Shown here in pieces: positions 16,103-21,143 of a stretch of 64,000 nucleotides of DNA; position 1 is the first letter of the stretch, and each line of letters starts with the position of its first letter. The notes under the pieces were generated by a model that saw only the letters and a list, made by a program, of their open reading frames with translations, made no database searches and was not told the DNA's origin. The translations under genes were made by a program, and so were the position numbers. The DNA is from Patescibacteria group bacterium (GTDB lineage Bacteria; Patescibacteriota; Microgenomatia; UBA1400; UBA1449), in the NCBI GenBank assembly GCA_050942955.1, contig JBMNOG010000004.1, forward strand, positions 4,431 through 68,430, given 5' to 3'.

Positions 16103-16119
16103 ATTTTTGCTGGTGATCC
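16103..16119 (-). repeat. partial duplicate of the tRNA-Glu 3' end (T-arm/acceptor fragment)
   Basis: gtgatcccacgggga(c) repeats the 3'-terminal ~15 nt of the tRNA-Glu at 16173-16189. It lies 53 nt downstream of the tRNA, and no 5' half is present. Confidence 0.6.
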
Positions 16120-16172
16120 CACGGGGACCCTTGTTCGCTTCGCTCCAAGGACAGGCTCAAACCCGTAGACTG

Positions 16173-16245
16173 TGATCCCACGGGGAATCGAACCCCGGTT
16201 TTTGGGATGAAAACCCAATGTCCTAGGCCACTAGACGATGGGACC
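16173..16245 (-). tRNA. tRNA-Glu (anticodon TTC)
   Basis: GGTCCCA acceptor, anticodon stem TTGGG/CCCAA with loop TTTTCAT, T-arm CGGGG-TTCGATT-CCCCG, 3' TGGGATC-A. No encoded CCA. Confidence 0.85.
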
Positions 16246-18048: not shown

Positions 18049-18260
18049 CCACTGTTCAGTGAAAACTGAACTTATTTAATTGGAAAGAGCTTTTCATCCA
18101 CTTGAAACTACATTAGGAAGTGAATTTTGGACCGTTAGCCCGTGCAGGTCGAAGACAGACCGTCCTGGAAGCAAAACGACCATGGATTAGTTCGAGGCCG
18201 AGGGCCTGAGATGATACCGAGAATGGTTAGCACTTATATAGAAAGATAAATTAATATTTT

Positions 18261-18334
18261 GGGCCGTTAGCTCAGTTGGTTAGAGCACCTGCCTTTTAAG
18301 CAGGGTGTCCTGGGTTCGAGTCCCAGACGGCTCA
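18261..18334 (+). tRNA. tRNA-Lys (anticodon TTT)
   Basis: GGGCCGT acceptor, D-arm GCTC-AGTTGGTTA-GAGC, anticodon stem CCTGC/GCAGG with loop CTTTTAA, T-arm CTGGG-TTCGAGT-CCCAG, ACGGCTC-A 3' end. No encoded CCA. Confidence 0.9.
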
Positions 18335-18458
18335 CAAAGTATTTCTCTCTCTGTTACTTAGTTCGGTATTTTTAGTATTTTTGTTGTAACTTCAATTTTA
18401 CTCAAGAAAAAGTGTTCCAGACCCAGATGGCGCTATTGATAAATCTCCAAAGCTAGTA

Positions 18459-18489
18459 ATTGACACGATACAATAATCCACCTATAATC
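18459..18489 (+). promoter_or_regulatory. sigma70-like promoter (TTGACA-N19-TATAAT) placing the AbiEi ATG at or within a few nt of the transcript start (leaderless)
   Basis: ttgaca at 18459-18464 and tataat at 18484-18489. The ATG is at 18498, with no SD. Confidence 0.45.
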
Positions 18490-18497
18490 AGTGGTAT

Positions 18498-19085
18498 ATG
18501 GTATCGTTAAAACAGATATCTGAACTTCAAGCTTTAGATAAAATATTTTATGACAGTAAAGACTTGTCAGTTTATCTCGAAGTAAGCGGAAGAACACTAG
18601 AGAACACGATAAAAAAGCTTCTAGATGAGAATGTATTAACGTCTCTTGAAAAGGGTAAGTACTATGTAACTTCAAAAAAACCTAATGAATTTCAAATCGC
18701 GCAATTTCTTTATAATCCCTCATACATCTCTTTTGAAACAGCGCTAAATTACTATGGTATTTTACCCCAGTTTCCTCAGGCTGTAACATCAGCAACAACA
18801 AAAAGAGCTAGAAGCAAGCTGGTTTCTGGAAAAGAGTATTCATATAGCCATATTAGCAAAAACTACTTTACTGGCTATGAAAACAGAGATGGGTTTCTTA
18901 TTGCTACTGCAGAAAAAGCTTTAATAGATCAAATATACTTCTCTTTTAAATCACTTAGATCTATAGACAACCTAGATGAATATGACGTTTCAAAGATAGA
19001 TAAAAACAAAGCTAAAGAATACGCAGAACTAATTGAAGGATCTTTAGGAAAAAGAATTGTTACATTTGTAAATGAAAACGTATGA
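18498..19085 (+). CDS. AbiEi-family antitoxin / transcriptional regulator (type IV TA, abortive infection AbiE)
   Basis: N-terminal wHTH-like region and the characteristic SYISFETALNYYGIL segment. 4-nt ATGA overlap with the downstream toxin gene. Confidence 0.7.
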   Translation: MVSLKQISELQALDKIFYDSKDLSVYLEVSGRTLENTIKKLLDENVLTSLEKGKYYVTSKKPNEFQIAQFLYNPSYISFETALNYYGILPQFPQAVTSATTKRARSKLVSGKEYSYSHISKNYFTGYENRDGFLIATAEKALIDQIYFSFKSLRSIDNLDEYDVSKIDKNKAKEYAELIEGSLGKRIVTFVNENV

Positions 19086-19852
19086 TAGACCTTGCCGCAA
19101 TTAAACAATTATCAACAAAGTATCAGATTAATCAATATGTAGTAGCACGAGAGTATCTTCAAATTGTCGTTCTAAAAGAACTGTATGAGGAAAATTTTTC
19201 TAAAGACATTTTTTTTAAAGGAGGCACTGCCATACGTATAGTGTATGGAGGACAACGATTTTCAGAAGACTTAGATTTCACCTCTCAGGCTACTGAAGGA
19301 TTTGAAGACAAAATCAATAAGTTCTTCCAAAACCTTACTAACAACTATCCTGTTACATTTAAGGAGAGAAAGTCACTTACTGGTAAAAGCTACCTTCTTA
19401 CCGGAAAAATTGAGTCATTATCTTCTCCCGTTTTTATTAGAACTGACTTCTCTTTAAGAGAGAATGTTTTAGAACCAACTAATCAAATACTAAGAACAGA
19501 TTACCCTGTTATTGTGCAAAATTTTATTCGCACGTTATCAAAAAATGAAATGCTTGCTGAAAAAGTGAGAGCAATCATAAAGAGAAAGAAACATAGGGAT
19601 ATTTATGATTTTTGGGTCCTCCTAGAGTTAGGGGCAGAGTTCAATACTACTTTGATCTCTAAAAAAATGGAGTTTTATGGAGAAAAATTTGATAAGAATA
19701 CTTTATTGAAAGAGCTTGGTAAGTTTAATAAAGACGACTTCACAAGAGACCTCTCTCCTCTTGTTAGCTATCAAGACAAAGAAAGGTTACCTCAGCTATT
19801 CGACTATGTATTGGCTTATGCAACTAAGGCAGTATCTTTACAGACTAATTAA
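19082..19852 (+). CDS. AbiEii-family nucleotidyltransferase toxin (DUF1814-like)
   Basis: FKGGTAIRIVYGGQRFSEDLDF is the nucleotidyltransferase GS...D.D motif typical of AbiEii. Translationally coupled to the upstream AbiEi gene. Confidence 0.75.
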   Translation: MIDLAAIKQLSTKYQINQYVVAREYLQIVVLKELYEENFSKDIFFKGGTAIRIVYGGQRFSEDLDFTSQATEGFEDKINKFFQNLTNNYPVTFKERKSLTGKSYLLTGKIESLSSPVFIRTDFSLRENVLEPTNQILRTDYPVIVQNFIRTLSKNEMLAEKVRAIIKRKKHRDIYDFWVLLELGAEFNTTLISKKMEFYGEKFDKNTLLKELGKFNKDDFTRDLSPLVSYQDKERLPQLFDYVLAYATKAVSLQTN

Positions 19853-20341
19853 GTTCTACTCTTACCATTTTAATAGTTATCTCACCATTTTCATACGTAA
19901 ATCCCAACTTCTTCAGTTCCTCATAAAGTTCTAGTACACTCTCGAGTAAGGTGTTCCACCTATGGGGCAATTGGCTCACAAATAAAGAAAACCTCGCGAA
20001 AGTGGGGTTTTTCTTTATTTTGACGATCTGGGACGAGAAGCAAGACATGAGCGAAGCGAGCGTCAGTCCCGAACTGGGTGAAAGCCAACTTCGGGGAGTC
20101 CCAGACGGCTCACTCTTTGGGAGTCAGTGTACGCTAACTCAATTTTTTATTGAAGAAGGTGGATTTCCAATAAAAATAGCTTTATTCCCCAAAAGTAAAA
20201 AGGCTATTGAAGAGTCAAATTACTGTTTAATTCTTAATAAAATTGTGGAGTCAAGATTATTAAAAACAAAAATACATAATAATAAATTTTTTGAGGAAAT
20301 ATATTTAGAAACTTTAAGCAAGCAATAGATATATTTATTTT

Positions 20342-20659
20342 ATGGATATAAAGAAAGCTCAAACTTTAGTAGATCATCATTTAGAAGAAATTGGGTACAA
20401 AAAAATTGAAACAACCACAGAACAAGCTTTTATCCACCTCATAGAAGAAACAGGAGAAGTGGCAAGAGCCATACTCCATAAACAAACAAAAAGGAACAAA
20501 CTGGCAACCACCACTGACCCTTCTAATCTTAAAGATGAAGTTGCAGATATCTTCTGGCAAACCCTAAAACTAGCTATTTATCTAGACATCGATCTAGATG
20601 CAGCCTTTAAAAATAAATACAGAAAAAATAGAAATAAGATGAAGAATAATAACAAATAA
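20342..20659 (+). CDS. MazG-like nucleoside triphosphate pyrophosphohydrolase domain protein (small)
   Basis: EEIGYKK...HLIEETGEVARAI...KDEVADIFWQTLKLA is the MazG EExxE / D motif pattern. 105 aa. Confidence 0.65.
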   Translation: MDIKKAQTLVDHHLEEIGYKKIETTTEQAFIHLIEETGEVARAILHKQTKRNKLATTTDPSNLKDEVADIFWQTLKLAIYLDIDLDAAFKNKYRKNRNKMKNNNK

Positions 20660-21143
20660 ATAAAGTTTATTAACATTCCTGCCCGAAAGGAAAAATAATA
20701 GGTCTTTGGGTAGGATTCTCCCTAATTTTTCTAATTGTCTCCCTCTTTTTTTCCAATCTTTATATATCGCCAAAATTTAAACTTTATTCAAAGCGTTATT
20801 CAAGTAACGGTAATCTTATCAGGTTTGCTCTCAGCTGGATTCTTTACTTGTAGAGTTAAATATATTTCCAGTTCCGGAAATCCAGAAGCGTTAGAAAAAT
20901 CTAAGCGCACTAGTTTTTAAAAAGACTTGTTTTGTGTGTTTCTGTTTGAAAATTAACTCTGTTCTTATGTTTTATTAATAATTGTCAACTAGACTTTAGC
21001 TGTACTTTGACATTGCCCATCCATATACCCAGATCATACATCTCCATTCTTACACACGCGTAAGAACTAGCTAGAGCAACTGCTTATGCTTTAATTGTAG
21101 GAACGATCCCTAGAACCCTAGCTTAACTAGAAGGAGTAAACCC

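Follow-up and report, generated by a model that had tools for sequence, protein, structure and literature searches.

The stretch of DNA described here (the window) comprises 64 kb of contig JBMNOG010000004.1 of a Patescibacteria group bacterium, and all coordinates are counted within it. Its RuvC homologues place the host near Candidatus Beckwithbacteria. Patescibacteria, the candidate phyla radiation (CPR), have tiny genomes and no cultured genetics. At the 3' end of a tRNA-Lys gene the window carries a short islet with an AbiEi/AbiEii gene pair, and the evidence supports the view that this pair sits on horizontally acquired, integrase-less DNA, inserted site-specifically at that end. We consider it probable, with some reserve, that the islet is a non-autonomous, att-flanked AbiE defence cassette of 1,644 bp at a strain-variable tRNA-Lys hotspot of a Beckwithbacteria-like CPR lineage.

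Organization of the locus

The tRNA-Lys gene and the DNA downstream of it hold the following features (+, forward strand; -, reverse strand).

18261..18335 (+): tRNA-Lys(UUU), intact (ARAGORN; Rfam RF00005 at 18261-18334, 71.7 bits); integration is targeted to its 3' end (attB/attL side)
18329..18338 (+): 10-nt direct repeat GGCTCACAAA, left copy (the tRNA end followed by AAA); proposed att core of the left junction
18336..18440 (+): conserved cassette left end, including TCTCTCTGTTACTTAGT (18346-18362)
18460..18488 (+): sigma-70-like promoter, TTGACA (18460-18465)-N17-TATAAT (18483-18488), 12/12 match
18498..19085 (+): AbiEi antitoxin / transcriptional regulator, 195 aa (PADLOC AbiEi, 3e-29, residues 30-181)
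19082..19852 (+): AbiEii nucleotidyltransferase toxin, 256 aa (Pfam PF08843, 1.4e-30, 107.4 bits at a cut-off of 22.5; PADLOC, 2e-48)
19845..19979 (-): small open reading frame (ORF) of 44 aa, MSQLPHRWNTLLESVLELYEELKKLGFTYENGEITIKMVRVELN, whose GTG start is the complement of the cassette-terminal CAC; forms the conserved right end
19973..19982 (+): right copy of GGCTCACAAA, at the right islet junction 19979/19980
19987..20012 (+): intrinsic-terminator hairpin with T-run (terminator scan), the tRNA-Lys terminator displaced by the islet; flanking backbone
20024..20113 (+): conserved spacer with an 18-nt tRNA-Lys 3' fragment (20096-20113); an old att scar or secondary att site, unoccupied here
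20342..20659 (+): MazG-like nucleoside triphosphate pyrophosphohydrolase, 105 aa (Pfam PF03819, 3e-10); outside the islet, 228 nt past the 18-nt repeat

The islet occupies 1,644 nt (18336-19979; junctions 18335/18336 and 19979/19980). Its GC content is 0.333 vs 0.414 for the window (sd 0.027, equal-sized windows) and is the lowest among all 1,644-nt windows; low GC extends past the right-hand copy of the 18-nt repeat to about position 21000 (0.30 in 20114-21000). The 10-nt repeat GGCTCACAAA has only two copies in the window, starting at 18329 and 19973, and seven of its ten nucleotides belong to the tRNA. No recombinase ORF was detected in 18336-19979, either in the ORF list or by a Pfam search of the window proteins. 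An earlier, sequence-only reading of this DNA had described the interval as AT-rich and devoid of an integrase and had placed a MazG-like gene just outside the right-hand repeat, all of which is borne out. A blastn comparison of the islet with phages and plasmids yielded no match.

The AbiE gene pair

The antitoxin gene comes first, and its stop codon (19083-19085) overlaps the AbiEii start at 19082 by 4 nt (ATGA). The two proteins are named at NCBI as 'type IV TA system AbiEi family antitoxin domain-containing protein' (MGI5827787.1; TA, toxin-antitoxin) and AbiEii (MGI5827788.1), both on a 75.9-kb contig. The earlier assignment of the pair is thus confirmed by PADLOC and by the NCBI names, and for AbiEii also by Pfam; the Pfam AbiEi models, on which it was to be checked as well, failed to hit, AbiEi having no Pfam match at E<=0.01. 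A PDB sequence search with both proteins gave no match. The catalytic motifs of the AbiEii family are GG[ST]A, DxD and an RDxYD-type motif. The AbiEii translation contains GGTA...SEDLDF, FKGGTAIRIVYGGQRFSEDLDF and KRKKHRDIYDF, and judged against these motif definitions its nucleotidyltransferase motifs appear intact.

The -10 box ends 9 nt ahead of the AbiEi ATG at 18498, and a Shine-Dalgarno sequence is absent. The TTGACA/TATAAT promoter and the missing Shine-Dalgarno sequence had been recognized before, with a spacer given as N19 that is corrected here to N17. From this promoter-ATG geometry a leaderless or nearly leaderless AbiEi mRNA is plausible. The -10 box is overlapped by a weak palindrome, CCACCTATAATCAGTGG (18478-18494; 12/17 positions), which may be an operator; in AbiE systems AbiEi is expected to regulate its own operon by way of inverted repeats in the promoter. 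Going by family membership, AbiEii should be a toxin (a nucleotidyltransferase) that is neutralised by AbiEi, and AbiEi would repress the strong promoter abutting its own start codon. As a type IV toxin-antitoxin / abortive-infection pair, the module would stabilise the islet and defend against phage.

Empty and alternatively filled sites

An empty tRNA-Lys site, for which the sequence-only reading had recommended a search in related genomes, was found in JGI contig Ga0613821_005306 (L020). The RuvC encoded there is 65% identical, the order sortase-RuvC-tRNA-Lys is kept and the tRNA-Lys gene is identical to that of the window at 75/75 positions. The tRNA gene of L020 ends in GGCTCAC/AAAAACAAA (the slash marks the junction), and AAAAACAAACCTCACGAAAGTGAGGTTTGTTTT, directly after GGCTCAC, is the homologue of the window hairpin at 19987-20012. 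Approximately 92 nt after the tRNA, 28 nt of its 3' part recur, with the T arm intact. Since the window without 18336-19979 aligns colinearly with L020, the islet is an insertion between the tRNA gene and its terminator. Another relative, L006 (RuvC 66% identical), could not be used as an empty site: the RuvC/tRNA-Lys synteny is kept and the genes downstream are unrelated. Regarding same-species genomes, a contig scan with RuvC gave only relatives of 45% and 34% identity.

Exact-protein look-ups located the strain of the window also in SRR31066179 (100% identity) and a sister strain among the Logan contigs of metagenome ERR10905741. On the left flank, the RuvC-sortase contig of the sister strain agrees with the window at 99.9% identity and stops within tRNA-Lys. 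Its 56-kb contig ERR10905741_47749 starts with the last 39 nt of tRNA-Lys (100% to 18297-18335) and matches the window from 19939 on (99.8% over 10.4 kb), including the terminator, the 18-nt copy, a 93-aa ORF and the MazG gene. Elevated mismatch between window and sister ends at ...TCAC/AAATAAAG, which is 19979/19980, and identity is 99.8% from 19980. Because the left end of contig 47749 is the end of tRNA-Lys, 14,500 nt of unrelated DNA take up, in the sister strain, exactly the place that the AbiE islet has in the window. The genes of this island are, in order, as follows.

Gene 1: 569-aa large serine recombinase, encoded on the opposite strand and running into the tRNA (Resolvase 35.2 bits, Recombinase 23.1 bits, above the Pfam cut-offs)
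Gene 2: DUF8128 protein
Gene 3: truncated defence-type reverse transcriptase (UG17-like, 1e-26)
Gene 4: second, distinct AbiE pair (AbiEi 28% identical to that of the window)
Gene 5: 1,522-aa fn3 protein
Gene 6: MacB-type ABC transporter
Gene 7: helix-turn-helix protein
Gene 8: PLD nuclease
Gene 9: small ORF

The recombinase of this island has a zinc ribbon, CPECH...YHCNKRGH. In the integrated state its ORF ends inside tRNA-Lys with ...PYGEPSGTRTQDTLLKRQVL before the stop codon. In the hypothetical excised circle it would run in frame into the frame of the small protein and end with ...PYGDPSGFRVEHLLESILKTYTRLQELGFTYYNGKIVVIDVEEVKND before the stop codon. Integration might thus remodel the C-terminus of the recombinase (sister-strain positions L014 9728-11435 joined with L009 5520-5640); chance is an equal explanation, as one in three frames would fit.

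In both samples the Logan contigs break at one and the same k-mer within tRNA-Lys (contig ends L001/L002 and L005/L014). The break is perhaps a repeat-induced branch of the assembly graph and not strain heterogeneity, because part of this tRNA sequence is identical in L006, a more distant Beckwithbacteria relative.

A second cassette with the same ends

Contig Ga0123335_1036760 (L018) came from a metagenome scan guided by the AbiEii protein, and its positions 1-531 match window positions 19586-20111. Identity is 94% in the 3' part of AbiEii and 90% in the right end, only 57% in the hairpin that follows the junction, and 91% over the 90 nt beyond it, tRNA fragment included. Directly after this fragment (...CCCAGACGGCTCGC/AAAG) a left end begins anew in L018: positions 534-638 are 73-77% identical to 18336-18440 of the window, and here the conserved left end precedes Fic/RhuM cargo. 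This second cargo is a 332-aa RhuM/Fic protein (Pfam), assigned by PADLOC to candidate system PDC-S23 (2.5e-132). It is followed by a second right end, 80% identical to that of the window, which terminates in ...CAATTGGCTCAC/AAAACAAAAAG, i.e. GGCTCAC/AAAA. The order in L018 is accordingly AbiE cassette, spacer, tRNA fragment and Fic cassette, that is, two cassettes in tandem with the same ends and unlike cargo. The left-end motif was defined as TCTCTCTGTTACTTAGT ... AAGTGTTCCAGACCC and the right-end motif as CTCGAGTAAGGTGTTCC ... GGCTCAC. An internal site of the left end (18396-18440, CTCAAGAAAAAGTGTTCCAGACCCAGATGGC) resembles the right ends in an alignment. Viral contigs contained nothing that matched the cassette-end pattern, AbiEii or the sister recombinase.

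By alignment, the right end formed by the small ORF has homologues in the sister island and in the two L018 cassettes. Eight small-protein relatives of the ORF were found (E 4e-5 to 8e-4); P0379 (377 aa), also drawn into this cluster, proved unrelated. In the sister island and in contig L029 the small ORF is translationally coupled to a PLD nuclease gene, so that conservation of the right end is partly a coding constraint; in the cassettes it looks like a remnant of a small-ORF + PLD module. The AlphaFold model of the small protein (predicted local distance difference test score 80) consists of one helix and a beta-hairpin. With no Pfam match of the protein and no PDB fold match of the model at E<=0.001, the label excisionase could not be assigned.

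Proposed mode of insertion

Insertion at the tRNA end is nucleotide-precise, the site occurs in empty, alternatively filled and tandem states, and a serine recombinase gene lies at the junction in the sister strain. We infer that a 1.6-kb unit was integrated by a recombinase acting in trans, or that the islet is what remains of a larger element. Under the former, which we favour, AbiEi and AbiEii would ride on a non-autonomous cassette (18336-19979) that, because it encodes no recombinase, would have been moved by one supplied in trans. The most likely source would be a large serine recombinase of the kind that uses the tRNA-Lys site in the sister strain. The sequence-only reading had left the choice between a decayed element and a minimal element mobilised in trans; the latter gains support from the second L018 cassette, with the same ends and different cargo. 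As tRNA integration hotspots go, the locus is a clear example and a fairly ordinary one. It displays defence-gene turnover at nucleotide resolution, in four states of the tRNA-Lys site: empty, AbiE, AbiE + Fic, and the 14.5-kb recombinase island.

Several points weigh against a cassette moved in trans. The trans enzyme is hypothetical, as the islet contains no recombinase, and the large serine recombinase of the sister strain has no homologue in the 64-kb window (tblastn). That recombinase may not recognise the cassette: the reconstructed attP of the sister island shares only TCAC with the cassette junctions. An identical core of 10 bp is more typical of tyrosine than of serine recombinases. 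A search of metagenomes with the empty-site/scar pattern GAGTCCCAGACGGCTCACWMWTWRRG returned 0 matches, and neither an excised circle nor a same-species empty site was found. Only two cassette types are known, from two contigs, and their shared ends could stem from local duplication and cargo replacement instead of independent mobility. Finally, L029 has the same small ORF with the PLD gene and no tRNA-Lys nearby, and coding explains part of the right-end conservation.

The cassette model predicts diagnostic junctions, ...CAATTGGCTCACAAAGTATTTC... for the circle and ...CCCAGACGGCTCACAAATAAAG... for the empty site. The corresponding junctions for use with reads are ...GAGTCCCAGACGGCTCACAAATAAAGAAAACC... 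(empty site), ...CTATGGGGCAATTGGCTCACAAAGTATTTCTCTCTCTG... (cassette circle) and ...CCCAGAGGGGTCACCATATGGTACTAAAG... (sister-island circle), and these can be searched for directly in reads.

A wider generalization is tentative and, in our judgement, unlikely. Beckwithbacteria-like CPR would possess a family of promoter-bearing defence mini-cassettes of 1.3-1.6 kb (AbiE, Fic/PDC-S23, others) with conserved ends, which a trans-acting recombinase would insert, stack and exchange at att sites derived from tRNA-Lys. Such a system would be functionally integron-like, with a fixed platform site (18396-18440) resembling the end site of each cassette; it would be based on a tRNA gene and possibly on a large serine recombinase, whose 3' end integration may remodel. 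If this is true, an att core and a recombinase would give a lineage poor in genetic tools a compact integration system that is portable. Otherwise, the locus still illustrates that the most conspicuous tRNA-end repeat need not bound the most recent insertion.

Alternative explanations

The alternative that survives best, though it too is unlikely, regards the islet not as a mobile cassette but as the decayed stump of a larger island that encoded a large serine recombinase, as the sister island does; internal deletions would have taken out that gene and most cargo and left AbiE and the right end. That right end (small ORF + GTGTTCCACC...TCAC) is homologous to the one of the sister island and is located at the identical nucleotide position, and the small ORF would be left over from a small-ORF + PLD module that is intact in the sister island and L029. 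Decay of elements to cis-mobilizable elements (CIMEs) has also been described as the usual route (PMC5704250). However, the left end (18336-18440) is conserved beside other cargo at another att copy in L018, which is not expected of random deletion end-points. The right ends of window and sister are, besides, only distantly related (homology at the protein level, DNA about 60-70% identical); the islet is therefore no recent derivative of the sister island.

Turnover of the hotspot by homologous recombination, in which alleles are exchanged through the flanks after DNA uptake and the cassette undergoes no site-specific step, is improbable. It would account for flanks that are 99.8-99.9% identical between strains with wholly different inserts, for the tRNA and spacer/fragment shared by all variants and for an islet that lacks a recombinase. 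It does not agree with the 10-nt repeat at the junctions and their precision, to the nucleotide, at the tRNA end, with the same ends around different cargo at two att copies in L018, or with a recombinase gene exactly at this junction in the sister strain. Homologous exchange may spread the variants once these exist.

Very improbable is the original model of the sequence-only reading, a single element (18336-20113) that has lost its integrase and has the 18-nt repeat as attL/attR. The repeat itself exists and far exceeds what chance would give: in 64 kb the 18-mer GAGTCCCAGACGGCTCAC has exactly two copies (18318-18335 and 20096-20113, the latter first given as 20097-20114), 0.02 matches are expected even with three mismatches, and none of 100 shuffles gave two or more. 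In the downstream copy both T-stem halves, 'ctggg' (20074-20078) and 'cccag' (20100-20104), enclose 21 unrelated bases, just as the earlier description of a foreign loop had it. GC is low throughout 18336-20113, and repeats of tRNA 3' ends are the classical signature of islands. Yet the downstream copy lies 116 nt outside the islet and is there with or without an insertion, in the sister strain as in L020. The stretch that contains it (19980-20113) is shared at 99.3% identity by the sister strain, where the AbiE DNA of the window is missing, and recurs in L018; the empty site of L020 still has the terminator and then the 28-nt version of the tRNA fragment; and the divergence breakpoint is at 19979/19980, not at 20113. 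Being present at empty and filled sites alike, the tRNA fragment is older than the islet and is flanking DNA, an older feature of the locus. Site-specific integration into the tRNA gene, as first proposed, is upheld by the empty site of L020 and by the sister strain, in which the same nucleotide position has another occupant; the 18-nt repeat as its att boundary has to be given up. The fragment can putatively serve as a secondary attachment site and is seen occupied in L018.

A transposon was rejected, as terminal inverted repeats are absent and the same tRNA-like target is used every time.

Comparison with known systems

The AbiEi-AbiEii system of Lactococcus and Streptococcus agalactiae is reportedly the reference for AbiE, in work ascribed to Dy et al. 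2014. The pair in the window resembles it in its overlapping genes, an AbiEi of about 195 aa with a winged helix followed by a DUF1814/PF08843 AbiEii, and in a strong promoter, over whose -10 box lies a weak palindrome as candidate operator. It differs in its low identity to characterised members and shows no PDB sequence match and no Pfam AbiEi match; toxicity, GTP use, autoregulation and phage defence are putative properties. AbiE is among the commonest defence families in groundwater metagenome-assembled genomes (PMC12259885).

Streptococcal CIMEs at the 3' end of tRNA-Lys are att-flanked elements without integration and transfer genes, which form tandem arrays by integration into att copies (PMC5704250). 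The islet likewise lacks recombination and transfer genes and has junction repeats and conserved ends, whose att function is putative. It also shares its site with a recombinase-bearing element, the sister island being located at identical junctions, although cognate recognition is putative. The streptococcal elements depend on tyrosine integrases and on conjugative helper elements (integrative and conjugative elements, ICEs), whereas a large serine recombinase and no conjugation genes are found here. The cassettes are, furthermore, very small (1.3-1.6 kb), with conserved ends and a promoter of their own.

In the genomic islands at ssrA of Dehalococcoides, attL lies at the 3' end of the small-RNA gene, and directly beside it the reverse strand encodes a large serine recombinase of some 540 aa (PMC3146451). 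These islands are arranged in tandem with 3'-end repeats of about 20 bp between them, have low GC and break synteny, and 15 of them without an integration module were interpreted as CIMEs (PMC3146451). The likeness is especially good: the sister island, with its recombinase by attL on the reverse strand, and the islet of the window together reproduce this pattern, and tandem units split by copies of the target 3' end occur in L018. The islet itself has no large serine recombinase, however; that geometry is found in the sister island and at tRNA-Glu of L020 and L026. The target is tRNA-Lys (tRNA-Glu in relatives) and not the tmRNA gene, the cargo consists of defence/toxin-antitoxin genes and not of reductive dehalogenases, genes of the integration module (DsiA, RecF or ParB) were not seen, and the ORF of the recombinase, on the opposite strand, extends into the tRNA.

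Likeness to integrons is architectural only and consists of arrays of small single-function units with conserved site-like ends at a fixed platform, where 18396-18440 resembles an end site. Unlike integrons, the locus has neither an IntI-type tyrosine recombinase nor attC hairpins, the cassettes have their own promoters and a tRNA gene serves as the platform. Only three points are new: the CPR lineage, cassettes that are very small, bear a promoter and have conserved ends, and the geometry of a recombinase overlapping the tRNA.

Neighbouring features

The MazG gene lies in low-GC DNA that is common to the sister strain and is absent from L020. Between 20114 and 25100 the window contains the 93-aa ORF, the MazG gene and genes for a weakly Lar-like 87-aa protein (E 0.0017, below the cut-off), an RRM protein, GH52 and ChaB. 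These genes may be older accessory DNA at the same hotspot. A sigma-70/DUF5666 block is located about 1.7 kb from tRNA-Lys in L020 vs about 7 kb in the window.

The 93-aa ORF (20047-20328, +) spans the 18-nt fragment and was called by JGI and Logan, not by NCBI. It has no Pfam or PADLOC match, the homologous frame is split by the Fic cassette in L018, and it is probably not a real gene. A structured RNA was considered for the spacer (20015-20125) and for a GC-rich segment upstream of the tRNA (18080-18250) and was dropped, as neither folds better than shuffled sequences (z -0.83 and -0.59, respectively). Rfam, at gathering score and at E<=5, reported only tRNAs, none of them in these two segments. 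The GC-rich segment is non-coding, and L006 and L020 lack it. Within it, 132 nt upstream of the tRNA, the 5' end of tRNA-Lys recurs together with the bases before it (ATTTTGGACCGTTAGC at 18124-18139 vs ATTTTGGGCCGTTAGC at 18256-18271).

The window also contains a tRNA-Glu(UUC) gene (16172-16245, -), which has an exact 14-nt copy of its 3' end, CCCCGTGGGATCAC, 45 nt downstream (16113-16126, -). The spacer between them holds GAGCGAAGCGA, an 11-mer in common with the tRNA-Lys spacer (20049-20059). This suggests scars of related elements at the two tRNA genes. In L020 (6126-7701, 513 aa) and L026 (2407-4166, 574 aa), genes for large serine recombinases lie on the strand opposite tRNA-Glu and overlap its 3' end; the former protein is 23% and the latter 48% identical to the sister recombinase. 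In both, the complement of the T arm encodes the last residues (..G-I-E-P..).

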